The notes under the pieces are model-generated. The model was not told the origin of the DNA. It worked only from the letters and a program-made list of their open reading frames with translations, and did no database searches. The position numbers were made by a program, and so were the translations under genes. This document shows, in pieces, positions 32,624 to 50,977 of a DNA stretch of 64,000 bases. How positions within the stretch are numbered: the first letter of the stretch is position 1; each line of letters opens with the position of its first letter. The DNA lies in assembly GCA_963757295.1 (NCBI GenBank), contig CAVWQZ010000006.1:142390-206389 (forward strand). The letters run 5' to 3'. This DNA comes from an uncultured Actinomycetota bacterium (GTDB lineage: Bacteria; Actinomycetota; Actinomycetes; JACCUZ01).

Positions 32624-33305
32624 TACTGCATCTTCGCGGTCTCGCCCTCGCAGAGGTCGAAGCGCTCGTCGCCGTACTGGAAGCTGCCGCACTTGCCGTT
32701 CTTGAGCCGCAGCGCCTTGAAGTAGGTGCCGAACACGTCGCCGACAGCCACCGAGTAGGTCTTGGACGCCGACCGTCACGCGGCCGGACGAGTTGTCCGC
32801 GGTGACGGAGATGACCTTGACCGTCAGCGGCTTCGACGAGACGGCGCTGCCGCCGGTGCTGGTGCCGCCAGTGGTGCCACCGCTGGTGCCGGGCTGGGTG
32901 GTGACGACCGCGCCGCCACCGACCGGGGTGACGACCGTGCCGCCACCGGCGACGACGCCGCCGGTGCCACTGGAGACGCCGCCGGCTGCCGGGGGCACGA
33001 CCAGGGGCTTGAACGGGTCCTTGCCGATGGCCTTGTTGGACAGCTTGGGGGCCTTGACCACGGGCGGCACCGACGGGGTCGGGGTCGGCGTGGACTGCGA
33101 GCCCGGTGGAGCGACGGGTCGGCAGCGAGGTGTCCGTTGGCTCGTCCCCGCCGGCGAAGACGAAGAAGTAGGCCAGGGCACCGAGGACCAGGATGCCGAC
33201 CACGGCGAGGATCAGGACCGTACGGCGGTTGCCGCTGGCCTCCTCGAAATCAGCCGGCCCATCGGCGACCGAGGTCCCCTGGAAGGGGAAGCTTGACTCA
33301 CTCAT
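32624..33305 (-). CDS. Bitopic membrane protein with Thr/Gly/Pro-rich linker and ~70-aa C-terminal beta-type domain; PilP-analogue candidate; at least 2 frame shifts
   Basis: ATG after SD CCAGGAGACTGAC. MSESSFPFQGTSVADGPADFEEASGNRRTVLILAVVGILVLGALAYFFVF (single TM), linker VPPVVKAPKLSNKAIGKDPFKPLVVPPAAGGVSSGTGGVV...TTGGTSTGGS, C-terminus KPLTVKVISVTADNSSGRVTV / SKTYSVAVGDVFGTYFKALRLKNGKCGSFQYGDERFDLCEGETAKMQ*. Confidence 0.5.
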
Positions 33306-33326
33306 GTCAGTCTCCTGGTCAGTTGG

Positions 33327-34058
33327 CCGCGGGGGCCGTCGACGGGGCGGGGGTGGCGGTGGCGCCGGGGACCGGGACCGTTGCCCCTGCCGCAACTGCA
33401 GCGGCAGGCGAGAGGAACACGCGACCCTTGATCTCCAGCTCCAGGGGACCCGCAGTCGGGTTCTCGGCGGTGGAGGCGGCTGTACTTCAAGGTGAAGCCG
33501 GTCACGAGGAACGAGCGCTTGAGGGCCTCGACCTTGTTGAGGAACTGCTCCGTCTCGAAGTAGCTACCGGTCGTCTTGACCGTGATCGGCACCTGGTAGA
33601 GAACCGGCGCGGCTGCGACCGGAGCCGTGACGGTGCCAGGAGCGGTCGTCGTCGCCGAGCTCGGGGCCGCGGTGCCCGCCGTCGTTGGCACGACAGCGGT
33701 GACCGCGGGGGCCACGACCGCGACCGGCAGGGCCGGCGCGAGCGAGAGGAGGTCGACGCCGGACTTCTTGGCGCCGGCGGTCAGGTCACGGATCAGAGCG
33801 GGCAGGGCCGGGTTGTTGGGCACCTGCCTGCGGATCTGGGCGAGGAACGCCTCCTGCTTGGGCAGGTCCTGGGCCTGGGCCTTGAGCACCTCGAGCTGCT
33901 GGATGAGGCGCTGGTTGGTGGCGTCCTGCTCGGCCTTGTCGCGCGCGCAGGCCGGCGGCCTCCGAGCGCTTCGGCGCGATCAGGAGGAACCAGCTGGCCG
34001 CGAAGATGGCTGCAACGAGCAGCACAGCCAGCGCGGACCATTTGCGTGTTGCGGTCAT
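33327..34058 (-). CDS. pilO: Type IV pilus assembly protein PilO-like; at least 2 frame shifts
   Basis: MTATRKWSALAVLLVAAIFAASWFLLIAPKRSEAAGL (TM), then LKAQAQDLPKQEAFLAQIRRQVPNNPALPALIRDLTAGAKKSGVDLLSLAP...YQVPITVKTTGSYFETEQFLNKVEALKRSFLVTGFTL, end ...GRVFLSPAAAVAAGATVPVPGATATPAPSTAPAAN*. Confidence 0.6.
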
Positions 34059-34059
34059 G

Positions 34060-34737
34060 TCAGCTGCCCGCCTTCTGGATGTAGCGCTTGGACAAGGCGT
34101 CCTCGGTGACGGTGACCTGGCTCTTGAACCGCACGACCTCGCGGGTGCCGATCTTCTCCTTCGTGGACTCCGTGAAGTAGGGCTGCGTGTAGCCCTTCTG
34201 CTTCGCGAGCGAGTCCAGCCAGGCAGCCACGTCGTTGTGCTTCATGGCGTGACCGTCGAAGGCCACCGCGCCGACGCCGCTCTCGAGGTATCCCGCAGCG
34301 GTTCCGGCAACCGGGGCCGGCGCAAGGCCGACGGCCTCGTTGGGAGTGACCGTCATCGTCGTGAGCCAGACGCTGTTCGGGATCTTGAGGCTGAGGTCGT
34401 TGAGGTAGAACGACCAGCGGATCTCCTTGCCCATCGCCAGCTCCAGCTGCGCGCGCGCAGCCTCGACCTGCGCGTAGACCAGGGGCACCTGGCTGTACTC
34501 AGCCGCGCGCGCCTCGAGCTTGGTGGTCTCGCGCTTGGAGTCGGCCAGGTCACCCTGCGCGGAGCTCACCTGGTTGCTGGCGGCGAGGAAGAGCACCCCG
34601 ACGACACCGAGCGAGGCCACGACGGCCGCGCCGAGGGCGAACTGGGTGCGGCGGAAGCGCCGCTCCTGCTCGATCTCCGGCGGCAGCAGGTTCACCTGCG
34701 GCAGCGTGACGAGACGGGTAGTGGTCAGCGTGCTCAT
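34060..34737 (-). CDS. pilN: Type IV pilus assembly protein PilN
   Basis: LPQVNLLPPEIEQERRFRRTQFALGAAVVASLGVVGVLFLAA, then coiled region and a C-terminal ferredoxin-like part. Intact 225 aa. Confidence 0.8.
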   Translation of the reverse strand: MSTLTTTRLVTLPQVNLLPPEIEQERRFRRTQFALGAAVVASLGVVGVLFLAASNQVSSAQGDLADSKRETTKLEARAAEYSQVPLVYAQVEAARAQLELAMGKEIRWSFYLNDLSLKIPNSVWLTTMTVTPNEAVGLAPAPVAGTAAGYLESGVGAVAFDGHAMKHNDVAAWLDSLAKQKGYTQPYFTESTKEKIGTREVVRFKSQVTVTEDALSKRYIQKAGS

Positions 34738-35798
34738 GATGCGGCTCCGAGGGCGAGGCCGACCGGCACGGCTGCCAGCGGCTCGACGAAGGCGATCTGC
34801 TCAGACGAGAGACCGGTGCGGCCCACCTTCAGGCCACGCATGGGGGTTCCTACCTCGACGGGCACCCGGGTCGTGACCTGGAGCCGCTGCGCGAGTCCGC
34901 CGAGGCGGGCACCGCCACCGGTCAGCACGAGCTTGGAGATGGGCGCTGATCCACTCGAGGCGAGGTAGTAGTCGAGAGATCCGCGGATCTCGTCGACGAA
35001 CGCCGACCCGACCGCTTCGACGACTCTGGCCGCAGCCTGCGCGTCCATGCCTTCGACCGGCAGGCCGATGCCGAGCTGCTGCTTCATCGCCTCGGCCTGG
35101 GCCTGCGGCACGCCCATCCGCTCGGCGACGGCGTCAGTGATGTCCTGCCCGCCCATGAGCAGGATGCGCACGAACCGCGGCACCCCGCCCTGGTGGAGCA
35201 CGATGTTGGTCACGCGAGCACCGACGTCCACGAGGGCCTCGACCTGCGAGCCCATGCCGAGGTGGTCGGTGTCGGAGAGCGACCGGATGACCGCGAAGGG
35301 AGTGAGGTCGACCATCAGGGGCGACAGGCCGGCGATCTGCACTGCTTGCAGGCTGGCGTGCACCATGTCGCGGGAGGCGGCAACGAGCAGGCCGCGAAGG
35401 ACGCGGTCACCGTTCTCGCCGTTGAGCTCCTCGAGCGGGTGGAAGTCGAGGACTGCCTGCTCGACGGGCATGGGGACGAAGTCCTGCACGTGATAGGCGA
35501 GCGACTTCTTCAGCTCGTCAGCGGGCATCCACGGAAGGTCGACCTGGCGGACGATGACCTTCTGGTTCGCGACACCGATGACAACCTTCTTGCTGCTGAA
35601 CTTGGTGTGGCTCCAGAGCTGCTTGATGGCCGCACCTACCGCGTCGGGGTCGATCACCTCGCCGTCCCGCACTGCACCTTCGGGAAGGGCCACCTGGCCG
35701 AACTTCTCGAGGGTGACCTGACCCTTGCCGAACGAGAGCTCGGCGGCACGCACACCCGAGGTCCCGATATCGAGACCGATGGCGGATCGACCAGCCAC
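34734..35798 (-). CDS. pilM: Type IV pilus assembly ATPase-fold protein PilM
   Basis: SAIGLDIGTSGVRAAELSF...VIGVANQKVIVRQVDLPWMPADELKKSLAYHVQDFVPMP (actin/FtsA-like). Intact 354 aa. Confidence 0.9.
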   Translation of the reverse strand: MAGRSAIGLDIGTSGVRAAELSFGKGQVTLEKFGQVALPEGAVRDGEVIDPDAVGAAIKQLWSHTKFSSKKVVIGVANQKVIVRQVDLPWMPADELKKSLAYHVQDFVPMPVEQAVLDFHPLEELNGENGDRVLRGLLVAASRDMVHASLQAVQIAGLSPLMVDLTPFAVIRSLSDTDHLGMGSQVEALVDVGARVTNIVLHQGGVPRFVRILLMGGQDITDAVAERMGVPQAQAEAMKQQLGIGLPVEGMDAQAAARVVEAVGSAFVDEIRGSLDYYLASSGSAPISKLVLTGGGARLGGLAQRLQVTTRVPVEVGTPMRGLKVGRTGLSSEQIAFVEPLAAVPVGLALGAAS

Positions 35799-35902: not shown

Positions 35903-36697
35903 ATCAGCCCAGCGCGTGATCGAGGTAAAGGTCTGCCAAAGCACCGCCCCACAGGATCGCCACGAAGGCGCCTGCGAGCATGAACGGGCCGAACGGGACC
36001 TTGGACTTCCGGCCGGCCTTGCCGACGGCCATCAGCGCCGATCCCGACGACGCCTCCGAACAGGAATCCGAGGAAGGTCCCCGTCACGACCTCCGCCCAC
36101 CCCAGCCAGCCCAGGTAGGCCCCGAGCACGCCGGCGAGCTTGACGTCCCCGAAGCCCATGCCGGCCGGGTAGATCCATGCCAGGGCGAAGTAGAAGGCGT
36201 ACAGGGCGGCCATTCCCAGCCCGGCGCGCAGGTAGCTGTCCCAGTCGTGCCCGAACACGGCTGCCGCCCCGAGCAGCACGGCTGCGACGACGTACGACGG
36301 CAGGACGATCGCGTTCGGGAGCCGCTTGACGTCCAGGTCGATGAGAGCGAGCGCCACGCCGATCGCCCCGAGGTAGAGGAATGCAGGCAGCTCAGGCTCG
36401 AGCCCGATCCGGGCCGCCAGCACCACGAAGACGGCAGCGGTGCCGAGCTCGACGAGCGGGTAGCGGGCCGAGATGGGGGCCTTGCAGTCCCGGCACCGGC
36501 CGCGCAGCAGCAGCCAGCTCACCACCGGCACGTTGTCGCGCGGGCGCACGGCCGCGCCGCACGCCGGGCAGTGGGACGGCGGGTGCGCGATGGACTCGCC
36601 ACGCGGCACCCGCCACACCACGACGTTCAGGAACGAGCCGATGATCAGCCCGAGGACGCCGACAAGGATCAGGAACAGAGACCACCGGCAGACCTTA
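35903..36697 (-). CDS. pilD: Prepilin peptidase (A24 family); frame shift near 35990, N-terminal start obscured (CT-dinucleotide-repeat indel near 36690)
   Basis: LFLILVGVLGLIIGSFLNVVVWRVPRGESIAHPPSHCPACGAAVRPRDNVPVVSWLLLRGRCRDCKAPISARYPLVEL...GMGFGDVKLAGVLGAYLGW. C-terminus KSKVPFGPFMLAGAFVAILWG recovered in the +1 frame. Confidence 0.8.
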
Positions 36698-36713
36698 GGG
36701 CAGAGAGGGCGGA

Positions 36714-38051
36714 TCAGCGGTCGTCCTCGCGGAAGTTCTTCACGTTGATGTTCAGCAGCGGGCCGGGCATGTTCTCCAGGTAGCAGTCGTCAATCTTGAT
36801 GTCGGCCGTGCCGGTGAGGTCGAACTGGTTGGCGGCGTAGATCGTGCCGATCAGCTGTGCAGCCACCGTTGGACTTCGTGACGTTGCCGTTCGGTGCCGG
36901 CCCGAGCGCGAAGATGGCAGCTTGCAGGATGGTGTTGGCGTTCAGCCGGATGTTGCCCTTCTTGACGATCACGACGACGCCGCCCTTGGGGGCGCAGTTC
37001 GCATCGTCCGCGTCCACGAAGACCGAGGACGGCCGGCCGTAGAGGGTCTGGGAGATGTCGTTGAGGTCGACCATCCCGCCGACAGCAGCGCCCTGGAGGT
37101 CGTAGAAGAGGACCGGGTTCTTCAGCGGCGAGGTGCCGTTGGAGATGGGCGCGGGGATCGCGGTCGTGTTGGTGAAGTAGTTGTTCTGTTCGATGGCGAT
37201 GCCCTTGAGCAGGTCGAGCTGGGCGTCGGAAAGGCCCGAGGTGTTGTAGTCGTACATCTGGCCCATCTGCGTGGCGCTGGAGATCAGCGACGTGGACGGG
37301 TAGACCGGTGGGCCGGCGAACATGTTGAAGCACGGGGCCGGGACCGGGTTCGCCCCGTTGATGTCCTGGTCATAGGGGTACGCCGTGTTGCACCGCGTTG
37401 AGCCGTCTGTGGATGTTGTTGCTGGTGCCGGGGCAGTTGTTGCTCTCGGTGATGTTCGACGACGAGTGAGCTGCGGCCGGGATGCCGTAGACCATGTCGA
37501 TGTTTCCGCCGAAGTTGATCTTGTCCCGGTCGTTGATGCAACCGGTCGAGAACAGCGACAGGTAGTGGATACCGCTGCTGCCGCCGGCGGTCAGGTTGTT
37601 GGAGAACAGCCCGATCGGGTACTCGAAGGGCTTGACCTCGACGTCGACCTCGATGGTCCGCGAACCCGGGCCGGGCTCGGAGATGCCCACCGAGTGGATG
37701 CGGTAGACGCCGGGACGCCGCTTCGGCTGGTCCATCGGCTGCAGGGTCTCGAACCACACGTTGTAGCGCTCGTTCGGTGCCAGCGAGACGACCTTCGACG
37801 GCATGGGCGTCACCGTCCTCCGCCGACTCGCCCCACGGGTTCGCGGCGCCGCAGTTGGGAGAGCACTTGATCTTCAGGACGCCTTCCGTGCGGATGTAGG
37901 CGACGGCCTGGGCGATCCCGCCCTCGGAGACGGACAGCGCCGAGGCCGACTGCCGGTCGCTGGTGCTGCTGGTCAGGTTGCTCGACGTCACGCCGATCGC
38001 GGCCACCGCGAACGCGGTGAGCAGCGCCGCCATCAGCAGCACCGTGATCAT
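36714..38051 (-). CDS. PilX_N-type pilus assembly / minor-pilin-associated protein, tandem copy A; at least 3 frame shifts
   Basis: MITVLLMAALLTAFAVAAIGVTSSNLTSSTSDRQSASALSVSEGGIAQAVAYI (hydrophobic N-terminus plus S..E..A..AAEAG-like PilX_N pattern). Downstream parts PSKVVSLAPNERYNVWFETLQP..., CFNMFAGPPVYPSTSLISSATQMGQMYDYNTSGLSDAQLDLLKGIAIEQNNYF... lie in other frames. Confidence 0.55.
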
Positions 38052-38177: not shown

Positions 38178-39511
38178 TCAGCGGTCGTCCTCGCGGAAGT
38201 TCTTCACGTTGATGTTCAGCAGCGGGCCGGGCATGTTCTCCAGGTAGCAGTCGTCGATCTTGATGTCGGCCGTGCCGGTGAGGTCGAACTGGTTGGCGGC
38301 GTAGATCGTGCCGATCAGCTGCGAACCACCGTTGGACTTCGTGACGTTGCCGTTCGGTGCCGGCCCGAGCGCGAAGATGGCAGCTTGCAGGATCGTGTTG
38401 GCGTTCAGCCGCACGTTGCCCTTCTTGACGATCACGACGACGCCGCCCTTCGGGCGCGCAGTTCGCATCGTCCGCGTCCACGAAGACCGAGGACGGCCGG
38501 CCGTAGAGGGTCTGGGAGATGTCGTTGAGGTCGACCATCCCACCGACAGAAGCGCCCTGGAGGTCGTAGAAGAGGACCGGGTTCTTCAGCGGCGAGGTGC
38601 CGTTGGAGATGGGCGCGGGGATCGCGGTCGTGTTGGTGAAGTAGTTGTTCTGCTCGATGGCGATGCCCTTGAGCAGGTCGAGTTGGGCGTCTGAGAGGCC
38701 CGAGGTGTTGTAGTCGTACATCTGGCCCATCTGCGTGGCGCTGGAGATCAGGACGTCGACGGGTAGACCGGTGGGCCGGCGAACATGTTGAAGCACGGCG
38801 CCGGGACCGGGTTCGCCCCGTTGATGTCCTGGTCATAGGGGTACGTCGTGTTGCACCGCTGCGTCGCACTGTGGATGTTGCTGCTGGTCCCGGGGCAGTT
38901 GTTGCTCTCGGTGATGTTCGCCGACGAGTGCGCGCGGCCGGGATGCCGTAGACCATGTCGATGTTGCCACCGAAGTCGATCTTGTCCCGGTCGTTGATGC
39001 AGCCGGTCGAGAACACCGACAGGTAGTGGATGCCGCTGCTGCCGCCGGCGGTCAGGTTGTTGGAGAACAGCCCGATCGGGTACTCGAAGGGCTTGACCTC
39101 GACGTCGACCTCGATGGTCCGCGAACCCGGACCGGGCTCGGAGATGCCCACCGAGTGGATGCGGTAGACGCCGGGGCGCCGCTTCGGCTGGTCCATCGGC
39201 TGCAGGGTCTCGAACCACACGTTGTAGCGCTCGTTCGGGGCCAGTGAGACGACCTTCGACGGCTGGGCGTCACCGTCCTCTGCCGACTCGCCCCACGGGT
39301 TCGCAGCGCCGCAGTTGGGAGAGCACTTGATCTTCAGGACGCCTTCCGTGCGGATGTAGGCGATGGCCTGGGCGATCCCGCCCTCAGAGACAGACAGCGC
39401 CGAGGCCGACTGCCGGTCGCTCGTGCTGCTGGTCAGGTTGCTCGAGGTCACGCCGATCGCGGCCACCGCGAAAGCGGTGAGCAGCGCGGCCATCAGCAGC
39501 ACCGTGATCAT
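38178..39511 (-). CDS. PilX_N-type protein, tandem copy B (~95% identical to copy A); at least 2 frame shifts
   Basis: Same N-terminus, ...KPFEYPIGLFSNNLTAGGSSGIHYLSVFSTGCINDRDKIDFGGNIDMVYGIPAA..., C-terminus CAPKGGVVVIVKKGNVRLNANTILQAAIFALGP...DIKIDDCYLENMPGPLLNINVKNFREDDR*. Confidence 0.55.
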
Positions 39512-39569
39512 GGCGGCACCGGCCTCGCGGTCTTCGCGGGGCTGGCGAAGGAGACTGGCGAGTGCATCT

Positions 39570-40283
39570 CATGCTGCGTTCCTCACATCGATTTGGACGC
39601 GGTAGTCCTGCCGCTTGGCGCCTTGCAGGACGGTGAGCCTGATGACGAGGTTGTCGATGTGCGACCAGTTCGGGGCCGGTCAGCGTGCCGGAGTTGTCCC
39701 CCACGAATGCGGAGGCGGGTGCGCAGCCAGTCGGCTGGAACTTGTCCAGCTCGGTCCACAGCGTTCCGTTGAGGCCGTCACAGTCGTACTGCCAGAGGCT
39801 GCTTCGGAACTCGATCGCGAAGGACGTCACGTGCGCGGCGAGGACGGGTGAGGTCACCACGGTGCCCGAGATGTCGGCGGCGGTGAGGAGCAGCTGGCTG
39901 CCGTTCCAGCTGTAGGTCAGCTCCTCGGGGTCCGCGGCGGTGGGCTCGATCACTCCATCGCCGTCGAAGTCGGCGGTGAAGGTGAACGAGCGGGCAGCTG
40001 TCGGGTTGCTGGCGAGGACGGGTGTGCCGCCTGCGCCCTGCACGTCGCTGAGCGCAACTGCCTGGCGAAGCTCACGTGAGATGCGGTTCAGCGCGACCCG
40101 GGCCTCTTCGTTCAGGTCGCTGGTGAGCCGGGTGTTGTCCGTTGCGGTGCGCGCAGTGAGGACGGTGCTCATGATGATGGCGCCGAGCACCGAGAAGATC
40201 GTCAGGGCGACGAGCATCTCGACCAGGGTGTAGCCGCGACTGTCGCCGGCACGGATGACCTGGAGGCGCGTTCGGAGGGCGTT
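39570..40283 (-). CDS. Minor pilin, PilW/PulJ(GspJ)-like, with prepilin N-terminal methylation motif; frame shift near 39640
   Basis: MNALRTRLQVIRAGDSRGYTLVEMLVALTIFSVLGAIIMSTVL... End recovered as ...HIDNLVIRLTVLQGAKRQDYRVQIDVRNAA*. ATGA overlap with the upstream gene. Confidence 0.6.
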
Positions 40284-41445
40284 CATCGCAGGTCCTCCGC
40301 GGTGCAGGTGAGCACGCCGAGCTCGACGCCCAGCGCGGAAGACGGGTCCGCGACTCCGCGGGTCGGCTTGGTGGTCACCGAGAACACCGCGGGGAGGCTG
40401 CCGCGAGCCAGCGTGCCGGTCGACTCGACGACCGGCGACCCGGTGGACATCCCGGACCAGCTCGCGATCCAGAAGTCGAGCGTGCGGCCCTCGTCCACAC
40501 CGATCGTGAAGGGGTTGTCGCTGATGCACCTGGATGGTCGACGGGTCGGGCAGGCCGACCGAGCTGGGCGTCAGGATCCGCTGGACGTAGGAGCCGTTGC
40601 TGTACCACGAGACGGTGACCTGCCAGTCGGCCGTGACCGTCCCGACACCGGCGGTGTTGTTGCAGTCGACGGACGCACGGTCCAGGCGCACCCGGACCAA
40701 GCCGTCCGACGCGAACGAGGTCGGCAGGATCCGCAGCCGTCGCGTCTCCGCGTATGCGTAGGCGCGGACGGAGTTCGGGTTCTTGGTGGCCGTGAGGTAG
40801 CCCGAGCCCACGGCGGTCACGTCACCCGCCGCCCCGTCGGTGAAGAACACCATCGGGCGGCTCGTGTTCAGCATCAGGGCGCTGTCCTGCTCGCCGAGGA
40901 TGGCGTTGTTGTACGACACGCCGCCCTCGTCGCCGACGTCACTGCGCAGCAGACGTCCTTCGGCCTTCGACGTGCTCAGGGAGACGATGGGCACGCCCGC
41001 GGAGACCTTGGCCTGGACGTTCCCGACCACCGACGAGTTGCCGAAGCAGACCGGGTAGCAGGACGAGGGGTCGAGCCGCTTGGTTCCCGCCGTGGCGGTG
41101 GCCGGGCTGTCGTCTGCGGGGGCGGACGCGCGACACGGACGCGCCTTCCACGGAGTTGCCGGACAGGTAGCTCGCCTGAGCCCCGACGGTGGTGTGGGCG
41201 GCACTCGCTGCGGTCGAGAGGGCGCCGTTGGCGTTGAACATGCCCGCCTGCAGCTGCACGACCTGACCGCTCGAGAGGGACGACGCGACCTTCAGCGCCG
41301 TCGCTCCGGCGGCCGAGACGACCTGCCGCTCTGCGGGGGCGACGTTCGCGATCTCGGTGCGCAGGATCGACGACTTGGCGCTGCCAGGTGCGTCCCACGA
41401 GGTCGTCACCGTCACGCCGAGCAGGCTCGAGGCGGGCATGTCCAT
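40280..41445 (-). CDS. Large (~390-560 aa) Ser/Thr/Gly/Val-rich non-pilin protein inside the minor-pilin operon (PilY1/PilC-tip-adhesin functional analogue?); at least 2 frame shifts
   Basis: MDMPASSLLGVTVTTSWDAPGSAKSSILRTEIANV..., then other-frame continuation PADDSPATATAGTKRLDPSSCYPVCFGNSSVVGNVQAKVSAG...RLDRASVDCNNTAGVGTVTADWQVTVSWYSNGSYVQRILTPSSVGLPDPSTIQV, C-terminus ...FTIGVDEGRTLDFWIASWSGMSTGSPVVESTGTLARGSLPAVFSVTTKPTRGVADPSSALGVELGVLTCTAEDLR*. No class III or obvious Sec signal peptide seen. Confidence 0.4.
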
Positions 41446-41451
41446 GGTTGC

Positions 41452-42393: not shown

Positions 42394-42507
42394 GGACGCT
42401 CCTGCATCAGAGGCTCTCTGGCGGTGGATATCGGCAGCGCGACAGGCCAAGTTGAGCGTCGCCCCCAACTGGTCTGCGCTCATCTGCGGTCGTGCGTACC
42501 GGCCCGA

Positions 42508-42943
42508 TCAGCAGGGGCCCGGCGCGGGCCGGCCCTCCAGGCTGTCCATGTGGTAGTCGGCCGTCCCGATCGCCGTTGAGCTTGATGTGGTCGGCCTCGA
42601 GGCAGTAGCGGGTCGAGGTGGTGATGCCCGCGACCGGCAGCGACACCTCGACGTTCCCGCTCGCGTCACCCGACGCGTGGAAGGCGTACGGCGGGGTGAC
42701 ACCCGGCTGGATCGCACCCACCGGGAGATAGGTGCCGTGATCGTCGAAGAAGTTCTCCATGACCACCGCTGCGCTGCGGAGGTCCGAGACAGCGGCCGCG
42801 CGCCAGGCCTTCTCGCGCTGGTGCAGGAAGCTCGGGATGGCGATGCCGGCCAGGACGCCGATGATGATGACAACCACGAGCAGCTCGATCAGCGTGAAGC
42901 CGTCTTCACGCCATCGTTCGCTCATGAGTTGGTAACGCTTCAT
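42508..42943 (-). CDS. pilA3: Type IV (major-type) pilin paralog 3; C-terminal frame ambiguity near 42580
   Basis: MKRYQLMSERWREDGFTLIELLVVVIIIGVLAGIAIPSFLHQREKAWRAAAVSDLRSAAVVMENFFDDHGTY... Alternative-frame end ...YCLEADHIKL..TAIGTADYHMDSLEGRPAPGPC* is homologous to the pilA1 end AAVDYHLDITIGRPTDGRLLI*. Confidence 0.65.
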
Positions 42944-43056: not shown

Positions 43057-43461
43057 TCAGGGCAGGCGCCCGTCGTCGGGCGACCGATCGTGATGTCCAG
43101 GTGGTAGTCGACCGCGGCCGGCAGCTTGAGGTGGTTCGCGTTCAGGCAGTAGCCGGTGGTGGTCTGCGGTGGCGATCGTCAGGGTGACGTCGGAGGTGCC
43201 GGCGTCGTTACCGGACGACTTGAACAGCGCCGGAGTGGCACCGGCGTAGGTGCCGTTGTCGTCGAAGTACTCCTCCATCTTGGTCGCTGCGTTGCGCAGG
43301 TCGGAGATGGCGGCCTTCTTCCAGGCCTTCTCACGCTGGTTGAGGAACGTGGGGATGGCGATGGCGGCGAGAATGCCGATGATGATGATGACCACGAGGA
43401 GCTCGATCAGCGTGAATCCGCTGTCGCCTTCCTCGCGGGCCTTGCGGATGCGAGCGAGCAT
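43057..43461 (-). CDS. pilA2: Type IV major pilin, tandem copy 2 (identical to copy 1 for the first ~100 codons, then a 31-codon out-of-frame segment bounded by a +1 and a -1 indel)
   Basis: MLARIRKAREEGDSGFTLIELLVVIIIIGILAAIAIPTFLNQREKAWKKAAISDLRNAATKMEEYFDDNGTYAGATPALFKSSGNDAGTSDVTLTIAT, then ADHHRLLPEREPP...SPD, then DGRLP*. SD AAAGGACGGG before the ATG. Confidence 0.7.
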   Translation of the reverse strand: MLARIRKAREEGDSGFTLIELLVVIIIIGILAAIAIPTFLNQREKAWKKAAISDLRNAATKMEEYFDDNGTYAGATPALFKSSGNDAGTSDVTLTIATADHHRLLPEREPPQAAGRGRLPPGHHDRSPDDGRLP

Positions 43462-44500
43462 GTGCCCGTCCTTTCAGGACCGAACCGATGAGCCGCGCCG
43501 CCGGTCCCTCGCGGCACCCTTGTGGGGTGCCGGCCGAGGCAGCTGGGCTGACCACCCGTGGTGGCTCCCTGGCTTTGCGACCCCGTCTCGCGACGGGTGT
43601 GCCGTGTCTGGCCGGTGCAGCTCGTTGACATCAGAGTGTTCGGCCCCCCGCGGGGCCCGCTTGAGCGTCTGTCGGACCGACTTGGCGGCGCCACCCGGGC
43701 GGGCTAAAGCCAGAACGGCGGCCCAGCGGCCAGATGGCCGCCGGACCGCCGCAGGTGCAGACGTCAGATCAGCAGGCGCCCGTCGGTCGGGCGACCGATC
43801 GTGATGTCCAGGTGGTAGTCCACCGCGGCCGGCAGCTTGAGGTGGTTCGCGTTCAGGCAGTAGCCGGTGGTGGTCTGGGTGGCGATCGTCAGGGTGACGT
43901 CGGAGGTGCCGGCGTCGTTACCGGACGACTTGAACAGCGCCGGAGTGGCACCGGCGTAGGTGCCGTTGTCGTCGAAGTACTCCTCCATCTTGGTCGCTGC
44001 GTTGCGCAGGTCGGAGATGGCGGCCTTCTTCCAGGCCTTCTCACGCTGGTTGAGGAACGTGGGGATGGCGATGGCGGCGAGAATGCCGATGATGATGATG
44101 ACCACGAGGAGCTCGATCAGCGTGAATCCGCTGTCGCCTTCCTCGCGGGCCTTGCGGATGCGAGCGAGCATGTGCCCGTCCTTTCAGGACCGAACCGATG
44201 AGCCGCGCCGCCGGTCCCTCGCGGCACCCTTGTGGGGTGCCGGCCGAGGCAGCTGGGCTGACCACACCGTGGTGGCTCCCTGGCTTTGCGACCCCGTCTC
44301 GCGACGGGTGTGCCGTGTCTGGCCGGTGCAGCTCGTTGACATCAGAGTGTTCGGCCCCCCGCGGGGCCCGCTTGAGCGTCTGCCGGACCAAATCTGGCGG
44401 CGCCACCCGAGCGGGCTAAGCCGAACGGCGGCCCAGCGGCCAGATGGCCGCCGGACCGCCGCAGGTGCAGACGTCGCCGGTTCGGAGGGCGCGCTACTCG
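43090..44500. repeat. Tandem direct duplication, unit ~710 bp x2 (pilin CDS plus ~300-bp 5' leader), leaders >95% identical
   Basis: 43462-43763 and 44172-44493 align almost base for base. Both contain hairpins GGCACCC-TTGTG-GGGTGCC and CCCGTC-TCGC-GACGGG. Confidence 0.85.
43764..44171 (-). CDS. pilA1: Type IV major pilin, tandem copy 1 (intact, 135 aa)
   Basis: Same N-terminus with G/FTLIELLVV prepilin cleavage/methylation motif. ...TLTIATQTTTGYCLNANHLKLPAAVDYHLDITIGRPTDGRLLI*. Confidence 0.8.
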   Translation of the reverse strand: MLARIRKAREEGDSGFTLIELLVVIIIIGILAAIAIPTFLNQREKAWKKAAISDLRNAATKMEEYFDDNGTYAGATPALFKSSGNDAGTSDVTLTIATQTTTGYCLNANHLKLPAAVDYHLDITIGRPTDGRLLI

Positions 44501-45717
44501 ACCAGGTCGAAGATCTTGAAGATGGGCATGTAGAGCGCGATGATCATCGACCCGACGATGCCACCGAGGAAGGCGATCATCAGCGGCTCGAGCAGCGCCG
44601 TCAGGCTCTCGGTGGTCGCCTCGACCTCGGCGTCGTAGAACTCCGCGATCTTGCCGAGCATCGTGTCGAGCGCGCCGGTGTCCTCACCGACGGAGAGCAT
44701 CTGGACCACCATCGGCGGGAACACCGAGTGGTTGGCCAGGGGCCCGGCGAGCGTCTCGCCTCGCCGTACGCTCTCCTGCACGTCCCGCGTGGCGTGCGCG
44801 AGCACGACGTTGCCGGTGGTGTCGGCGACGATGTCCAGCGCCTGCAGGATCGGGACGCCGGCCTTGAGCATGGTGCCCAGGTTGCGGCAGAACCGGGTCA
44901 GCGCGACCTTCTGGAACAGGCCACCGAAGACGGGGATCTTCAGCTTCAGCGGGTCGAGGAAGTTGCGCACCCCGTCCTTGTGCTTGACCCGCTTCCACAC
45001 GAACAGGAAGACGATGAAGCCGACGAGGCCCAGCGGCGCCAGGATCTTCATCTTGTCGCTGAGGAACACCAGCACCCGCGTCGGGGCGGGCAGGGTGGCG
45101 CCGAGCTCCTCGAACATCCCGGCGAAGACCGGCACGATGAAGAGCAGCATGCCGGTGACGGCGAGCACGGCCATGATCAGCACGACGACCGGGTAGGTCA
45201 TGGCGGACTTGATCTTGCTGCGCAGCTTGACCTCGGACTCGTAGTTCGCCGCGACCTGCAGCAGCACCGTGTCGAGGAAGCCGCCGACCTCGCCGGCCCG
45301 GGTGAGGTTGACCATCAGGGGCGGGAAGACGTTGGGGTGCTTGGCCATCGCGTTGGACAGCGCGAGACCGGTCTCCACGTCCTTGCCGACCTCGCCGAGG
45401 ACCCGGCGAAGCTCCTTGTTCTCCGTCTGCTCGGCCAGGATCGTCAGCGAGCGCAGCATCGAGAGCCCGGCGTTGATCATGGTCGCGAACTGCCGCGACA
45501 TGACCGCGAGGTCCTTGAGCTTCACCTTCTTGCCGAAGCCCGGGATGCTGATCTCCTTCTTCATCCCGGCCTTGCTCTCGTTGATGCTCACGGGCGCGTA
45601 GCCCATGCTCTTGAGCTTGGTGGCAACCGCAGCCTGGGACTCCGCCTCCAGCTTGCCGGAGACGATCTTGCCCGAGCGGTCCCGGACCGAGTACTCGTAT
45701 GTCAGCGTCGCAGCCAT
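44494..45717 (-). CDS. pilC: Type IV pilus inner-membrane platform protein PilC (two T2SS-F domains)
   Basis: MAATLTYEYSVRDRSGKIVSGKLEAESQAAVATKLKSMGYAPVSI..., two repeats of the GspF-type domain. Intact 407 aa. SD GAGG upstream. Confidence 0.9.
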   Translation of the reverse strand: MAATLTYEYSVRDRSGKIVSGKLEAESQAAVATKLKSMGYAPVSINESKAGMKKEISIPGFGKKVKLKDLAVMSRQFATMINAGLSMLRSLTILAEQTENKELRRVLGEVGKDVETGLALSNAMAKHPNVFPPLMVNLTRAGEVGGFLDTVLLQVAANYESEVKLRSKIKSAMTYPVVVLIMAVLAVTGMLLFIVPVFAGMFEELGATLPAPTRVLVFLSDKMKILAPLGLVGFIVFLFVWKRVKHKDGVRNFLDPLKLKIPVFGGLFQKVALTRFCRNLGTMLKAGVPILQALDIVADTTGNVVLAHATRDVQESVRRGETLAGPLANHSVFPPMVVQMLSVGEDTGALDTMLGKIAEFYDAEVEATTESLTALLEPLMIAFLGGIVGSMIIALYMPIFKIFDLVE

Positions 45718-45728: not shown

Positions 45729-46993
45729 TCAGCCTCGGCCAGACAGCCGGTTGAAGTCCTCGACGTGGTGGCACTTCTCGAGACCGGTCTCGTAGGTGAT
45801 CTTGCCCTTCTTGACAAGGTCTGCGAGGTGCTGGTCCATGGTGTGCATTCCGTGCTTCGCCCCGGCCTGCATGGCCGAGTAGATCTGGTGGGTCTTGCCT
45901 TCCCGGATGAGGTTGCGGATGGCCGGCGTGGCCACCAGCACCTCGGTTGCGACCACGCGGCCCTGACCGTCAGCGGTCCGGGCGAGCGTCTGGCAGACGA
46001 CGCCCTGGAGGGCGCCGGCGAGCTGGACCCGCACCTGCTGCTGCTGGTGCGGCGGGAAGACGTCGATGACGCGGTCGATCGTCTGCGCCGCGTCCTGACG
46101 TGTGCAGCGTGGCGAAGACGAGGTGGCCGGTCTCGGCCGCGGTCAGGGCGACCGAGATCGTCTCGAGGTCACGCATCTCGCCGACCAGGATGATGTCGGG
46201 GTCCTGGCGCAGCACGTGCTTCAGCGCGTTCTGGAAGGACCAGGTGTCCTCCCCCACCTCGCGCTGGTTGACGATGCAGGACTGGTGACGGTGGAGGAAC
46301 TCGATCGGGTCCTCGACGGTCATGATGTGGTCTTTGCGCGTCCGGTTGGCGAGGTCGACGATCGAGGCCAGCGTCGTGGACTTGCCGGAGCCGGTAGGAC
46401 CGGTGACGAGGACGAAGCCACGCGGCAGGCTCGCGAAGTTCGCCACCGACGGCGGTACGCCGAGGTCCTCGAGCTTGCGGATCTCGAACGGGATGATGCG
46501 GAAGGCAGCGCCGACCGCGTCCCGCTGGCGGTACATGTTGACGCGGAACCGTGCGCGGCCAGGGACGCTGTAGGCGAAGTCGAGCTCGAGGTTCTCCTCG
46601 AACTTCTCCCGCTGCTTCTGGGTCAGCGCCGCGTACATCACGCGCTGGATGACCGGCGGCGTCAGGATCGGCTGGTCCTCCAGGGCCATCAGCTCGCCGT
46701 TGAGGCGCAGTGACGGCCGGGCACCGGAGGTGAGGTGCAGGTCGGACGCGCCGCGGCTGAGGACGGTCTCCAGCAGGTCGTTCAGGGAGATGTCCTCGTC
46801 CTCGAGCGGCGGCTTCGGTCGACCCGCGCTGGTAGGCGGACTCGACGGCCTCGGGCTCGGCCACGAGGACCGTCTGCTCGGGGACCGGTACGACGTCGGC
46901 GTGCCACTCGGTCGAGGCCACCGGCAGCGGTGCCAGCGGCTCGGCAGCGACCTGGGTCGGGAAGGTCGGGAGGAAGGCCTCAGCGGGCGGCAT
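45729..46993 (-). CDS. pilT: Twitching-motility retraction ATPase PilT with an apparent ~65-aa Pro/Ala/Glu-rich N-terminal extension; frame shifts near 46040 and near 46800; no start codon at the canonical PilT N-terminus
   Basis: ...[38 protein letters not shown]..., Walker [17 protein letters not shown], ...LVFATLHTS, then C-part (ORF 45729..46034) [20 protein letters not shown]...[23 protein letters not shown]. Candidate ATG at 46993 overlaps the upstream small-ORF stop. Confidence 0.75.
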
Positions 46994-47350
46994 GGCGGAC
47001 GGCACGGGCGGCGGCACGGCTCGGACGGCCGGCGGCCTCGGCGACCGGCTCGGCGAGGTACTCCGGCGCAGGCGCAGGCGCGGGAGCCTGGGCCGGCGGG
47101 GCGTCGAGGTACTCGGGCTGCGGCGGGGCGGCGGCCTCGAGCGACGGCGGCGGCGGTCGGGCGCCGGCTCGTTCACGTAGGAGTAGTTCCACCCTCCCCC
47201 GGCGACCGTCTGCTCCTCTTCGGGCGCGAGGCCAGGACCGGGCACGAACGTGCTCGGCTCTTCCGGCTGCGCCGGCTGGAATCCGGACGTCTCCACCTGC
47301 TGACCCCTTTCGACGTACCGTGCGGTCGCACGGCACCCGAGCAGACCTGG
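46980..47350 (-). other. Coding potential for a small (~105-125 aa) acidic Pro/Ala/Glu-rich low-complexity protein between pilB and pilT (frame-shifted; could alternatively be part of a longer PilT N-extension)
   Basis: [46 protein letters not shown]..., then other-frame [45 protein letters not shown]...*. SD AAAGGGG before GTG 47296. Confidence 0.3.
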
Positions 47351-47450
47351 CTGTCGAGCCAGTTCTCTCCTGCGTGGCATCGGTCGAGCAGTCGGCCTGC
47401 TTGAGCGTCGGGCCCGACCTTGCCAAGCCTTTAGACGACGACCCGCAGGA

Positions 47451-49098
47451 TTTCGTCCAGCGAGGTGATCCCGTCGAGCACCTTGGCGAGGCCGTCGTGA
47501 GCGCAGGGTGACCATGCCCTCTTCGCGGGCCTGCTCGGCGATGGCGGCCGCCGAGGCGTGCTCCACGGCCATCCGCTCGATGGTCTCGCTCACCGGCATC
47601 ACCTCGTGCAGCGCGAGCCGGCCCTTGTAGCCGGTCTTCGAGCACGCGGAGCAGCCGATCGGCCGGAAGAGCGTTGGGGACCGGCTCACCGTCCTGCAGC
47701 GGGAAGCGGGACTGGACCAGCAGCTCGCGGGAGGGGGTGAACTCCTCCTTGCACTTGGCGCAGAGCCGGCGGGCGAGGCGCTGGGCCAGCACGCAGTCCA
47801 GGGCGGACCCGACCAGGAACGGCTCGATCCCCATCTCGATGAGCCGGGTGATCGAGGACGGCGCGTCGTTGGTGTGCAGGGTGGAGAGGACCAGGTGGCC
47901 CGTCAGCGCCGCTTCCACGGCGATCTGAGCCGTCTCGTGGTCGCGGATCTCACCGATCAGCACGATGTCGGGGTCCGAACGCAGGATCGAGCGCAGGGCC
48001 GAGGCGAACGTCAGTCCCGCCTTGATGTTCGTCTGGACCTGGTTGATGCCCGGCCAGGCGATACTCCACCGGGTCCTCGACCGTGATGACGTTGACCTCG
48101 GGCCGGCTGACGATGTTCAGGGTCGCGTACAACGTCGTGGACTTGCCGGAACCGGTCGGACCGGTGACCAGGATCATCCCGTAGGGCTTGATGAAGCTCT
48201 GGGAGTAGACCTCGTAGTTGTGCTCGGAGAAGCCGAGGTCGGCGAGGTCGAGCCGGGCGGTCGAGTTGTCCAGGATTCGCATGACGACCTTCTCGCCCCA
48301 CACGGTCGGCAGCGTCGCGACCCGCAGGTCGATCTTGCGGCCGTGCGCATTGACCGAGAGGCGGCCGTCCTGAGGGATCCGGCGCTCCGCGATGTTGATG
48401 TCGGCCATGATCTTCAGTCGGCTGATGACGCCCTGCTGGATCGCCTTCGGTGAGCGCATGATCTCGTGCAGTACGCCGTCGATGCGGAACCGCACGCGCA
48501 GGTCGGTCTCGGTCGGCTCCAGGTGGATGTCCGAGGCTCGGTCCTGGATCGCCTGCGTGATCAACAGGTTGACGTACTTGACGATCGGCGCGTCCTCGAC
48601 GATCTCCTTGACCTTGGAGAGGTCGTCCTCCTCCTCCTGCGCGTCCAGCGCCTGGGTGAGGTCGTCGAGGTCGGAGTCGGCGCGGTAGTAGCGGTCGATG
48701 GCCGCGGCGACGTCCGCCCGGGTCGCGACGACCGGCTTGACGTCCATGCCGGTCAGCGACCGGATGTCGTCGACGGCGAACACGTTGGCCGGGTCGGCCA
48801 TCGCGACGAGCAGCTTGCCGTCCTCGAAGCCGATCGGGATGGCCGCGTGGCGGCGGCACACCGGCCCGGGCACGCGCCCGATGGCTGAGCCGTCGACCGG
48901 GAAGTCGCTCAGGTCGACGAAGCGCAGGCCGATCTGGGTGGCCAGCGCGGCCACCAGCTGGGACTCGGTGAGCACGCCCTGCTCGATCAGCACGCGCCCG
49001 AGGGCCCGGCCGACCCGTTCTTGTTCCTCGTAGGCGATGGCGAGCTGGTCAGAGCTGACCAGTCCACCCTCCAGGAGGATGTCGCCGAGCTGTTTCAC
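47451..49098 (-). CDS. pilB: Type IV pilus assembly/extension ATPase PilB (GspE family with N-terminal GSPII_E_N domain); at least 3 frame shifts (near 48055, 47680, 47500)
   Basis: GTG start after [41 protein letters not shown]..., Walker [64 protein letters not shown], zinc motif CAKCKEEF...[12 protein letters not shown], end [27 protein letters not shown]. Confidence 0.85.
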
Positions 49099-50977
49099 GC
49101 ACCCTCTCCTGCCGTCGAAGCCACGTTGGCGCCTCTGTTCCATCGGGTGGATGCGGCCGATCCTGAAGACGCATCGGTGCTGCTCTGATCGAGGCGGCGC
49201 AGCGCGTCCTCGACCGCTGCGCGCGCGCCGTCCGGCCCGGTCGTTGCCAGGACAGCCCGCAGGCGCAGCAGGATCGCCCTGGCCTCCGCCGCTCGGCCGG
49301 CCGTCTCCAGCACGCCCGCCTGACCGAGCAGCAGCATGGGCAGGCGCTGGCTGGAGGCGTCGGCCACAGCAGCTGCCAGGGCCACGCCCGCGGCCGGGCG
49401 CCCGGTCACGACCAGGGCCTTCGCACGATCCATCTGCAGCCCGGGATTGTCGGTGGCGGCCCGCTCGGTGCACTCCAGGGCGGTGCGCAGGTCCGCCTGG
49501 TCGGTGCCGCGCAGCATCGACCGGCAGACCGAGGCCGCCGGCAGCCAGGAGAGGTGCCCGGAGGCGGGGACGACACTCGTCACCGGCTGCGCCCACAGCG
49601 GGACCTCGGCGGCGGAGGCTCGCAGGCCGGATGCGCGCACCGCGGCCGGCACCGACACCAGCAGGAGCGCGACGGCGACGACAGCGACAGCACGTGGCCA
49701 CACGCCGGCCGGCGCATCGGGGCGTTGCCGGGCGGGCACGACCAGCCCTGCCAGGATCGCGAGGAACGCGAGCAACGACGGGTAGATCCAGTCGAAGTCC
49801 ACCCCGGAGTGCAGGATCAGGCCGAGCATGGCCAGCGGGACGCCGATGGCCACGACTTCGTCGTCGCGGCGGCGGGAACGGGACATGAGAGCCCACAGCC
49901 CGGCGAGCAGTGGGACACCCGTCGCGAGCGCGAGGGCCGCCACCAGGGGTCCACCGCCGTCGGAGAAGGCCTGCAGATAGCCGTTGTGCACATGGGTCGC
50001 GGGCGCCTACCCCGACGGGCAGGCGCACCGGAGGCGCCGGCGAACGAGTCGAACCCCGCACCGGTGAGCGGGTGCTCGGTGCCCAGCTCAGTGGCAACCT
50101 TCCAGAACTCGAGCCGCGCTCGGCCGTTGCCCTCCACAGACTGCGCCGGCGCCGCGGGCCCTGCAAGGTGGCGAACGGGCCGCCGGACTCCTCCATCAGC
50201 AGCGGGCTGGCGAGGACAGGTGCGCCAGACCCAGAGCGACGGCGACCAGGGCGAGGGCGGCTACCCGCCCTCTGCTGTCGATGAAGGACAGCACGATCAC
50301 GACGAGCCAGACGACCAGGAAGGTGCCCAGCCCGGCGCGACTGCCGGCGAACAGCAGCCCCGCGAGGCACCAGGGCGCGGTCACCCAGCCGACGATGCGC
50401 AGAGCGCCGTGAGCGCGGACAGCCAGCACTCCGGCGAGGACCCCTGCCCCGACCATGAACGCAGAGAACTGGTTGTGCCAGTAGAAGGTTCCCGAGCATC
50501 AGGCGGTAGACGCTGCCGCCGCCCCACCACGGCACGTAGGACTGGTAGAACTGCTCGAGCCCGACCACGGCGAGGACACCGAGAAGGGCGTGCCGGCGCG
50601 AGCGCGTGGTGGCCCAGGACCCGGACCACGACAGCGAGCAGGCCGGCGTAGGCCAGGGTCGCGACCTCGTCCAGGCCGTCCCAGTGGGTCGGGGCCGTCA
50701 GGCAGACGACGATCGCCGCCAGCCCGGGCGTCACGGCGAGCAGAAGCTGCCAGGCGGGAAGCACCCGCCACGGCCGCGTCGCGAACAGCGCCGGCGCCAG
50801 GGCGACGAGGGCCAGCCCGAGGACCCACGGGTCGCGCCCACCCGAGCCGTGCGTGAGCGGAACGGCCCACGCGAGAAGGGCGAGGACGACGGTCGCGGTG
50901 GCGACGTGCCCCGCCGTCGTGGTCCGGGCGCGGTCGCCGTCGAGCCGCACGGGCGGCCGCGACTGAAGCAGCGTCAT
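49095..50977 (-). CDS. Polytopic membrane protein with Wzy_C / O-antigen-ligase-type domain and C-terminal TPR-like region (PglL/TfpO-like O-oligosaccharyltransferase candidate); at least 4 frame shifts
   Basis: Multiple TM segments (WVLGLALVALAPALFATRPW..., FLVVWLVVIVLSFIDSRG...). Signature H-N-G-Y-L-Q-A-F-S-D-G-G-G-P-L-V. TPR-like tail LRTALECTERAATDNPGLQMDRAKALVVTGRPAAGVALAAAVADAS. Stop at 49095 abuts the pilB GTG at 49098. Confidence 0.55.

Follow-up and report, generated by a model that had tools for sequence, protein, structure and literature searches.

Genes for a probable monoderm-type type IVa pilus, with candidate c-di-GMP and GTPase control, between aroC and aroE of an uncultured actinobacterium

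What kind of machine, if any, is encoded by the long run of genes lying between aroC and aroE in an uncultured Actinomycetota bacterium (GTDB lineage Bacteria; Actinomycetota; Actinomycetes; JACCUZ01)? The genes lie in a 64,000-nucleotide stretch of its genome (GenBank assembly GCA_963757295.1, contig CAVWQZ010000006.1, positions 142,390 to 206,389 of the forward strand), here called the window, which is ~72% G+C and carries nearly all of its genes on the minus strand. An initial annotation, made from the sequence alone, had read positions 32624 to 50977 as a complete type IV pilus locus without a secretin. We found that the aroC-aroE interval encodes, with a probability of roughly 85%, a monoderm-type type IVa pilus (T4aP) machine that extends and retracts.

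The third-position G+C signal of the window shifts phase within obvious genes, and its lists of open reading frames (ORFs) are full of spurious frames. Genes were called with a codon-usage Viterbi model, trained on the intact genes of the window and allowing penalised frame switches; its path codes without interruption between aroC and alaS and changes frame many times inside genes. Hidden Markov model (HMM) searches of Pfam and NCBIfam were run on the concatenated frame-corrected translations, which were then compared with intact relatives. The loci labelled L001 and so on are contigs of related genomes used for this comparison. L008 is an Illumina contig of a metagenome-assembled genome (MAG) with the same architecture as the window, in which all of the genes are single ORFs in the same order. 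L081 is a long contig with 91-92% nucleotide identity to the window over 22 kb; its gene calls were used to map the limits of the pilus genes, and it holds intact PilB (554 amino acids (aa)), PilT (460 aa), PilC, PilD, PilM, PilN, PilO and Wzy_C proteins with precomputed Pfam matches. L082 is a short-read contig, 86-88% identical to the window. In addition, a PilC scan with one genome per species gave 570 relatives, the best 80 of which (59-76% identity, all Actinomycetota) were taken as loci.

HMM searches of the corrected proteins confirmed a type IV pilus locus on the minus strand at the positions given above, of which 32624 is the 3′ end of a PilP-like gene and 50977 the start codon of a Wzy_C-family gene (Table 1; described here from aroC to aroE in window coordinates, opposite to the direction of transcription). 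The locus has the features of a T4aP, namely a PilB-type ATPase, PilT, a single PilC, PilM-PilN-PilO, a prepilin peptidase and class III signal peptides, and profile matches bore out PilB, PilT, PilC, PilD and PilM/PilN/PilO as initially annotated. The best NCBIfam model for PilB was TIGR02538, the type IV-A PilB equivalog (660.5 bits, positions 2-562 of 564); the protein, whose reading is spread over three frames in blastx against intact relatives, has a zinc tetracysteine formed by two CxxC motifs, CAKC and CSAC. PilT scored well above the cut-off of TIGR01420 (494 versus 319 bits), with model positions 2-340 of 343 matched across the frame junction, and carries the AIRNLIRE and Walker A motifs. 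Blastx against the intact PilT of L007 placed its frame change at contiguous subject residues 476/477. PilC is one protein with two T2SSF halves, and among NCBIfam models those for type IV pilus (T4P) PilC score best. PilD shows two CxxC pairs (CPAC and CRDC) and a GFGDVK motif, and has one frameshift, an extra base at 36040 that neither L081 nor L082 has. A separate feature of PilT, unusual for this protein, is a proline/alanine/glutamate-rich N-terminal extension of ~110 aa (46750-47081, minus strand); the PilT ORFs of L001, L007, L008 and L081 are likewise extended, to 460-475 aa where the start was called (L008, L081).

An HMM search over every protein of the interval returned no Secretin, Flp, TadB/TadC or TadZ match, and the scores of TadA-type models, 49-53 bits, were far from the cut-off of 373. 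The lack of a secretin and of a TadB/TadC split, the low TadA scores and the signature motifs thus point to the monoderm kind of T4aP, in which no secretin would be needed because there is no outer membrane. The initial annotation, which had reported no secretin and had set a pilus with its own retraction ATPase and a set of minor pilins against the Tad/Flp class, withstood the HMM checks on both counts. Taxonomy is all that would suggest a Tad/Flp (type IVc) pilus: experimental work on actinobacterial pili, for example in Bifidobacterium and Micrococcus, has so far dealt with this class. Its likelihood is negligible: the major-type pilins, of 135-158 aa (120-145 aa after cleavage) with GFTLIE, are not the 40-70-aa Flp pilins, the single PilC is not a TadB plus TadC pair, and PilM, PilN, PilO and PilT are present. 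Together with the TadA scores, these features refute a Tad/Flp identity.

The pilin and motor families also bear on a Com-type competence system or a pseudopilus like that of type II secretion (T2SS), either of which would serve mainly for DNA uptake or protein export and not as a surface T4aP for adhesion or twitching. Major pilins match the ComP_DUS fold family and the N-terminal models of GspG/ComGC, the GspE score of PilB is high (596 bits), and the minor pilins are similar to GspH, GspJ and GspK, all of which such a system would explain. However, the interval encodes a bona fide PilT, and PilM, PilN and PilO rather than GspL/GspM or a ComG-only set; T4P models score best for PilB and PilC, while those for ComGA and ComGB remain far under their cut-offs. 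Since a T4aP can itself mediate DNA uptake, the matter is partly one of use and not of class, and we regard a Com- or T2SS-like system as unlikely.

Several observations nevertheless weigh against a T4aP. The TIGR02538 score of PilB is ~15 bits under the cut-off (675.65), and PilC scores under the PilC equivalog cut-offs. The pilus, its expression and its retraction are predictions from the genes. The identities of the PilP-like and PilX-like proteins are putative, being suggested by position, topology and sub-threshold matches only. The former begins with a transmembrane (TM) helix, continues with an S/T/G/P-rich linker that contains a DPFKP motif, and ends in a beta domain of ~70 aa; homologues occupy the same place in L001, L007, L008 and L033. 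The PilP-like gene gave no Pfam or NCBIfam match, a profile search of the PDB returned nothing below E = 0.2, and a single-sequence AlphaFold2 (AF2) model was unusable (predicted local distance difference test score (pLDDT) 43). Position and topology thus speak for the PilP-like label of the initial annotation, and the family searches do not.

The prepilin motif G-F/Y-T-L-x-E, with cleavage after the glycine, was found in six proteins with leaders of 10-18 aa, and N_methyl matches were obtained on six. Three of these are the tandem major-type pilins, A, B and C, that had been annotated initially. Pilin A is above the cut-off of the NCBIfam prepilin domain TIGR02532. Pilin B is frameshifted by an inserted C at ~43167, and the A/B duplication is common to the window, L081 and L001. 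Pilin C has 80% nucleotide identity to both of them (repeat family D1).

Downstream of the major pilins, the initial annotation had counted four minor pilins and a large non-pilin protein. We find instead four kinds of gene, GspH-like, a 547-aa modular pilin, PilW/GspJ-like and PilX/GspK-like (the last in two copies), in the canonical GspH/I/J/K (fimU-pilV-pilW-pilX) order and with gene sizes that fit. The curated threshold was passed by GspH only, the similarities to PilV, GspJ, GspK and PilX_N all being sub-threshold; the PilW/GspJ-like homologue of L082, for example, has weak N-terminal matches to GspJ/ComGF. The supposed non-pilin protein is the C-terminal part of the modular minor pilin, as its intact homologues show (80-91% identity, 99% coverage; named prepilin-type proteins by the Joint Genome Institute (JGI)). 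Indeed, in L008 this pilin is a single 583-aa ORF with a prepilin N-terminus, an N_methyl match and a weak PilV match. Beyond the prepilin N-terminus it consists of ~400 aa of all-beta sequence. An AF2 model made with 10 homologues (pLDDT 59.5) was confident for no more than the last 200 aa, all of them beta, and a Foldseek search against the PDB gave porin-like noise only (TM score ~0.1) and no fold match.

Both of the PilX_N-like genes reported by the initial annotation are present. They form a tandem duplicate of 1.46 kb (36687-39612) whose copies are ~96% identical, and the family match is sub-threshold (PilX_N 3.4e-4 for the L008 homologue, GspK 5e-5 for that of L082). Copy 1 aligns end to end with a single 443-aa ORF of L008. 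L081 and L082 each have one copy of the gene, from which both window copies are equidistant; the duplication may be recent or may be an assembly artefact from mixed strains.

In such a machine, PilD would cleave and methylate the six prepilins. PilB, a hexameric T2SSE ATPase, would act with the PilC platform and the PilM-PilN-PilO alignment complex. Going by what is known of these families, these proteins would polymerise the major pilin and PilT would depolymerise it; the minor-pilin quartet would prime assembly and cap the filament, and the 547-aa modular pilin would be the likely tip adhesin.

Table 1. Features of the aroC-aroE interval and its two bounding genes, in window coordinates. Prepilin motifs are given from the glycine that precedes the cleavage site.
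Feature	Coordinates	Strand	Description	Evidence
aroC	31342-32520	-		Pfam
PilP-like protein	32624..33306	-	bitopic; two frameshifts	position after PilO, topology
PilO	33319..34058	-	two frameshifts	PF04350 2e-10; blastx against intact L007 PilO in two frames
PilN	34060..34737	-	intact ORF	PF05137 1e-8
PilM	34734..35798	-	intact ORF	PilM_2 7.7e-50; TIGR01175 223 bits (cut-off 133)
PilD	35904..36685	-	prepilin peptidase/N-methylase	A24_N_bact 2.6e-36; Peptidase_A24 1.9e-12
PilX/GspK-like copy 2	36714..38051	-	large minor pilin; three frameshifts	repeats D3-D6
PilX/GspK-like copy 1	38178..39511	-	large minor pilin; three frameshifts	repeats D3-D6
PilW/GspJ-like	39590..40286	-	minor pilin, GYTLVE; one frameshift	N_methyl 5.3e-8
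Modular minor pilin	40283..41932	-	~547 aa, PilV-like N-terminus, GFTLAE; ~five frameshifts	intact homologues
GspH/FimU-like	41916..42393	-	minor pilin, GFTLIE; one frameshift	N_methyl 1.9e-10; GspH PF12019 1.7e-5
Pilin C	42465..42943	-	major-type prepilin, GFTLIE; one frameshift	N_methyl 9.8e-8; ComP_DUS-type fold match
Pilin B	43057..43461	-	near-identical tandem copy of pilin A	repeats D2, D9, D11; copy-to-copy alignment
c-di-GMP-I riboswitch aptamer	43535..43613	-	~75 nt upstream of pilin B	RF01051 48.0 bits (gathering 35)
Pilin A	43764..44171	-	intact major pilin, 135 aa, 14-aa leader, GFTLIE	N_methyl 7.4e-8; ComP_DUS 4.2e-7
c-di-GMP-I riboswitch aptamer	44245..44324	-	~75 nt upstream of pilin A start codon	RF01051 47.9 bits (gathering 35)
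PilC	44494..45717	-	platform protein, intact, 407 aa	T2SSF 5e-65 in two stretches
PilT	45729..47081	-	retraction ATPase; core frameshift ~46097, more indels in extension	TIGR01420; T2SSE
PilB	47431..49098	-	extension ATPase; three frameshifts, ~47498, 47672, 48049	T2SSE 5e-141; MshEN 3.4e-25
Wzy_C-family protein	49095..50977	-	O-antigen-ligase family, polytopic membrane protein, TPR-like tail; at least five frameshifts	intact homologues
Small Ras-like GTPase	51199..51774	-	intact; GPFSAGKT P-loop, TPGQ G3	ATP_bind_1 6.8e-20; Ras 6.3e-7
PATAN (DUF4388) protein	51778..52995	-	weak winged helix-turn-helix match, disordered tail; two frameshifts	DUF4388 4e-23
Roadblock/LC7 protein	53014..53643	-	MglB/CvnB-like	Robl_LC7 2.7e-19
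aroE	53702-54496	-		Pfam

Two kinds of element absent from the initial annotation connect the locus with cyclic di-GMP (c-di-GMP). The first is a class I riboswitch aptamer, present twice and matching RF01051 over its full length in both cases (model positions 1-87 of 87), once before pilin A and once before pilin B; we found no riboswitch upstream of pilin C. In L001 (twice), L003, L007, L008 and L010, the same aptamer is found in the spacer that separates PilC from the first pilin. A covariance model made from the aptamers of these relatives found it in 20 of the 80 loci, plus twice in L081; a search with it returned none in the Cellulomonas, Sanguibacter and Demequina loci. Covariation supports the structure of the aptamer. 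In an alignment of 22 distinct sequences fitted to the model, 8 of 18 pairs had changed on both sides, and 93% of cells were paired, compared with 19-48% when the partner was slid. An independent MAFFT alignment of 8 sequences also gave compensatory changes, in 5 pairs. On the other side of the balance, there is no terminator downstream of the aptamer, the minimum free energy fold of the leader has a z-score of only -1.4, and the switch could be either ON or OFF. A sigma-70 promoter and terminator scan was at chance level. A sigma-28/WhiG-type promoter candidate, TCAA-N16-GCCGAACA upstream of pilins A and B, was dropped, as a loose form of the motif occurs in the PilC-pilin spacers of only 2 of 62 relatives.

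The second element lies in PilB. We took as MshEN a pair of tandem 24-residue motifs, RLGxx(L/V/I)(L/V/I)xxG(L/V/I)(L/V/I)xxxxLxxxLxxQ, at the N-terminus of an ATPase. The N-terminus of PilB (~48930-49098) has two such c-di-GMP motifs, of the RxLGxxLLxxGLVxxxQL type, and scores 57 bits with the c-di-GMP motif model NF053729 (cut-off 38), besides the Pfam match given in Table 1. To judge from the sequence, c-di-GMP may act not only on pilin expression but on the motor too. It would then act twice, through a class I aptamer before each of two tandem major-pilin genes and through MshEN in PilB.

Is the locus, then, intact in the organism? As sequenced, the pilus genes, which run from the PilP-like gene through PilB, hold ~25 single-base frameshifts, by which 12 of the 18 are split. 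PilM, PilN, PilC and pilin A are the only intact ones named among them, so that the locus, described initially as complete, is complete only after frame correction. If the frameshifts were real, the pilus genes would be pseudogenes of a decaying relic. In favour of this are the number of interrupted genes and the distribution of the damage: single-base indels, most of them +1 insertions away from homopolymers, occur at about one per 500-700 bp in 2000-10500 and 32600-62900, whereas the 22 kb between 10.5 and 32.5 kb, with priA, metK, carAB and the pyr and aro genes, show no frameshift. This clean stretch stops precisely where aroC gives way to the pilus genes, a point at which G+C content drops too, and so patchy a density is odd.

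However, the same kind of indel is found outside the pilus genes, in genes at 2-10 kb and 57-63 kb as well as in mltG and the essential alaS. The latter is split into three frames by two indels and, once corrected, gives one tRNA-synt_2c match (positions 1-551 of 552); mltG has four switches (five frames) and yields a full-length YceG match after correction. Across 5646 aligned codons, no gene is interrupted by a nonsense codon. Blastx against intact relatives places the frame switches at contiguous subject residues, and 70-90% amino acid identity to relatives is kept on both sides of every junction. L081 and L082, two independently assembled close relatives, both differ from the window at the same single-base positions, which coincide with the frame switches and are mostly +1 insertions at non-homopolymer sites. 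In the pilin repeat, indels between the two tandem copies are about as frequent as substitutions. Since the frameshifts are window-specific, mostly +1 and also hit alaS, and since nonsense codons are absent, they are very probably sequence errors and not gene decay, and a relic is improbable. An indel load of ~1 per 500-700 bp over much of the sequence means that gene calls here need frame correction.

Frameshifts were also seen in related long-read MAG contigs, in PilM and aroE of L001 (17882-18923 and 2885-3668) and in the modular pilin of L081 (10001-11650); such errors seem common in long-read MAG assemblies of this kind. Within the window, switches are densest at 7986-9896 (plus strand), where about ten fall in what by eye resembles an endonuclease/exonuclease/phosphatase-family gene followed by an O-methyltransferase. 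A threonine-aldolase-like gene at 2033-3186 (minus strand), identified by eye only, seems to lie in two adjacent pieces.

The aro genes around the pilus locus raise the question of its origin. Pfam matches confirmed both flanks, with aroC, aroK, aroB, aroQ and an M24 peptidase gene on one side and aroE, YceG/mltG, ruvX and alaS on the other, and the aroC-aroE interval measures 21.2 kb. The placement between aroC and aroE proposed initially is thus correct, except that aroE does not adjoin the pilus genes: the stretch 51003-53643, between 50977 and aroE, holds a 63-codon ORF and genes that encode small GTPase, PATAN/DUF4388 and Roadblock proteins. We mapped the window proteins onto the loci by tblastn and counted gene order in the 47 loci with full 10-kb flanks. 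The order aroE<PilB<PilT<PilC occurs in 35 of the 47 and PilC<PilD<PilM<aroC in 30, and the whole aroE…aroC bracket falls within 21 kb in 24. Among the loci are those of Cellulomonas, Sanguibacter, Demequina, Kineosporia, Pseudokineococcus, Rarobacter, Timonella and Populibacterium, as well as many MAGs labelled Frankiales, Motilibacteraceae, Nanopelagicales and Mycobacteriales.

The bracket by aro genes that the initial annotation had singled out is therefore present but not peculiar to this genome. A horizontally acquired island inserted into the shikimate operon would account for the G+C content of the block (~0.65-0.70, against 0.72-0.75 in the flanks) and for the way the pilus genes break up otherwise contiguous aro genes. 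Yet the aroE…pil…aroC order recurs in dozens of genera of several orders, we found no integrase, tRNA target or flanking direct repeats, and a lower third-position G+C content is usual for secreted, fast-evolving pilins. An island is thus very unlikely, and we rejected it on the synteny across related loci. Because the same order is kept across many actinobacterial loci, the aro embedding is an old conserved neighbourhood, and the locus is an inherited, conserved part of it in this Actinomycetota branch and not an insertion. A literature search for aro-embedded pilus synteny found none. The only tRNA gene in the window, tRNA-Gly(CCC) at 5034-5127 (minus strand), is far from the pilus locus.

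The genes between pilB and aroE are part of this neighbourhood too. The Wzy_C gene abuts pilB in the window, L008, L010 and L081. The window version has no Pfam match, but its fragments match the L008 protein in several frames, and the intact homologues of L008 (739 aa) and L081 (624 aa) match Wzy_C; a PDB sequence search gave nothing meaningful. Wzy_C-family enzymes such as TfpO and PglL carry out pilin O-glycosylation. Speculatively, the protein encoded here could likewise glycosylate pilin.

Beyond it lie the three genes of the GTPase/Roadblock/PATAN trio, which occupy the same position in 13 related loci; homologues of the GTPase at this place in related loci are 64-88% identical to it, and the neighbour at the PATAN position is called PatA_N in L081. 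The TPGQ G3 motif of the GTPase has Thr in place of the usual Asp, which we take to be a feature shared with the MglA family; no PDB sequence match was found for the protein. Among solved chains, the Roadblock protein is closest to the Robl_LC7 proteins 7f8m and 9jue and then to CvnB5 (3leq). A Ras-like GTPase encoded beside a Roadblock/LC7 protein is the arrangement of MglA/MglB-type and conservon-type modules. Since the interval has no histidine kinase and no DUF742 protein, and the middle gene encodes PATAN/DUF4388, its composition is not that of a conservon.

PATAN domains bind PilB1 and PilC in Synechocystis (10.1101/2021.06.11.447907), and MglA/MglB homologues are encoded near PATAN genes (PMC4316618). 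For these reasons we propose that the trio probably sets where or when the motor works; conservon-like as it is, it might steer the PilB/PilC motor in space. Against this stands the nature of the link to the pilus, which for the trio as for the Wzy_C gene is conserved adjacency in one lineage and could be inherited synteny.

Taken together, the data allow a tentative proposal, and one that we hold as possible rather than likely: that one Actinomycetota branch carries a retractile T4aP under two control layers, one of c-di-GMP (riboswitch and MshEN-PilB) and one of the GTPase/Roadblock/PATAN trio. That branch would comprise the lineage of the window, MAGs resembling Motilibacteraceae, Frankiales and Nanopelagicales, and some MAGs of the Mycobacteriales and Micrococcales. 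Among the loci retrieved, none from a cultured strain carries the full set, and Motilibacteraceae-type MAGs come nearest. If true, this would be a Gram-positive counterpart of the MglA/MglB polarity control of Myxococcus and of cyanobacterial PATAN control. Literature searches found no description of a class I riboswitch on an actinobacterial pilin, and neither the riboswitch-pilin nor the trio-pilus pairing was found described in Actinobacteria. In kind, the locus adds little that is new, as monoderm T4aP are established in Actinobacteria and many sequenced relatives have the aro layout too; the pairing of riboswitch and pilin, and the trio, might be its only parts of specialist interest. Its value is that of a fully parsed reference layout for the clade, in which the pilus genes appear as a conserved aroE-aroC block across several actinobacterial orders. 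It also offers two testable regulatory links, one between c-di-GMP and the pilus (through the class I riboswitch of the major pilin and through MshEN-PilB) and one between the trio and the motor genes beside it.

How does the locus compare with known systems? PilM, PilN, PilO and PilT define the monoderm T4aP, from which the late outer-membrane parts are absent (PMC6916266). As in the T4aP of Firmicutes (Streptococcus sanguinis, Clostridium perfringens and Clostridioides difficile), the window has PilB/T/C/D/M/N/O in one cluster, with several major-type and several minor pilins and no secretin or outer-membrane parts (PMC6916266). The C. difficile gene pilA1 is activated through a class II c-di-GMP riboswitch (PMC6366702); the riboswitch of the window, in contrast, is of class I (RF01051) and occurs twice, once per tandem pilin cassette. 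The window differs further from the Firmicutes systems in the MshEN c-di-GMP motif of its PilB, in the additional PilP-like gene, Wzy_C gene and GTPase/Roadblock/PATAN triad, and in its high-G+C actinobacterial host and aro neighbourhood.

Within the phylum, T4aP were found by a global survey (PMC6668835), and the actinobacterial pili studied up to 2019 were of the Tad type (PMC6916266). The view of the initial annotation that actinobacterial T4aP are poorly characterised experimentally has to be toned down, as they appear in surveys (PMC6668835, PMC6916266) and, as cited in PMC12871210, have been studied in Actinoplanes zoospores. There, the zoospore pili of Actinoplanes missouriensis are credited with adhesion to hydrophobic surfaces (Kimura et al. 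2019, as cited in PMC12871210). Control of actinobacterial pil clusters by c-di-GMP via WhiG has been proposed (PMC12871210), and the window shares phylum, pilus class and the c-di-GMP link with Actinoplanes and with the WhiG/c-di-GMP-controlled clusters of Rubrobacter, Cellulomonadaceae and Sanguibacteraceae. The loci of Cellulomonas and Sanguibacter also share its aroE…pil…aroC synteny. Unlike in the WhiG-controlled clusters, a WhiG-type promoter is unsupported in the window lineage, and c-di-GMP control appears to be exerted via the riboswitch.

The likeness to the diderm T4aP of Pseudomonas aeruginosa and Myxococcus xanthus lies in the PilB/T/C/D/M/N/O core and the fimU-pilV-pilW-pilX order. 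Unlike these, the window lacks the PilQ secretin, TsaP, PilF and PilY1, of which the secretin is expected to be absent from a monoderm, and its PilP-like candidate is TM-anchored, whereas diderm PilP is a lipoprotein. In Myxococcus, a small GTPase and a Roadblock protein (MglA/MglB) govern pilus polarity (PMC4316618, PMC11580455); the Roadblock protein of the window, however, is closest to conservon CvnB-type chains and not to MglB. Like PixE, PixG and PilG of Synechocystis, the PATAN/DUF4388 protein is encoded with pilus motor genes, but it has no receiver domain and is paired with a GTPase and a Roadblock protein. Finally, with the Tad/Flp pili of Bifidobacterium breve and Micrococcus luteus the locus shares a type IV filament that needs a prepilin peptidase in a high-G+C Gram-positive host, and differs from them in its long GFTLIE pilins, its single PilC and its PilM/N/O/T.

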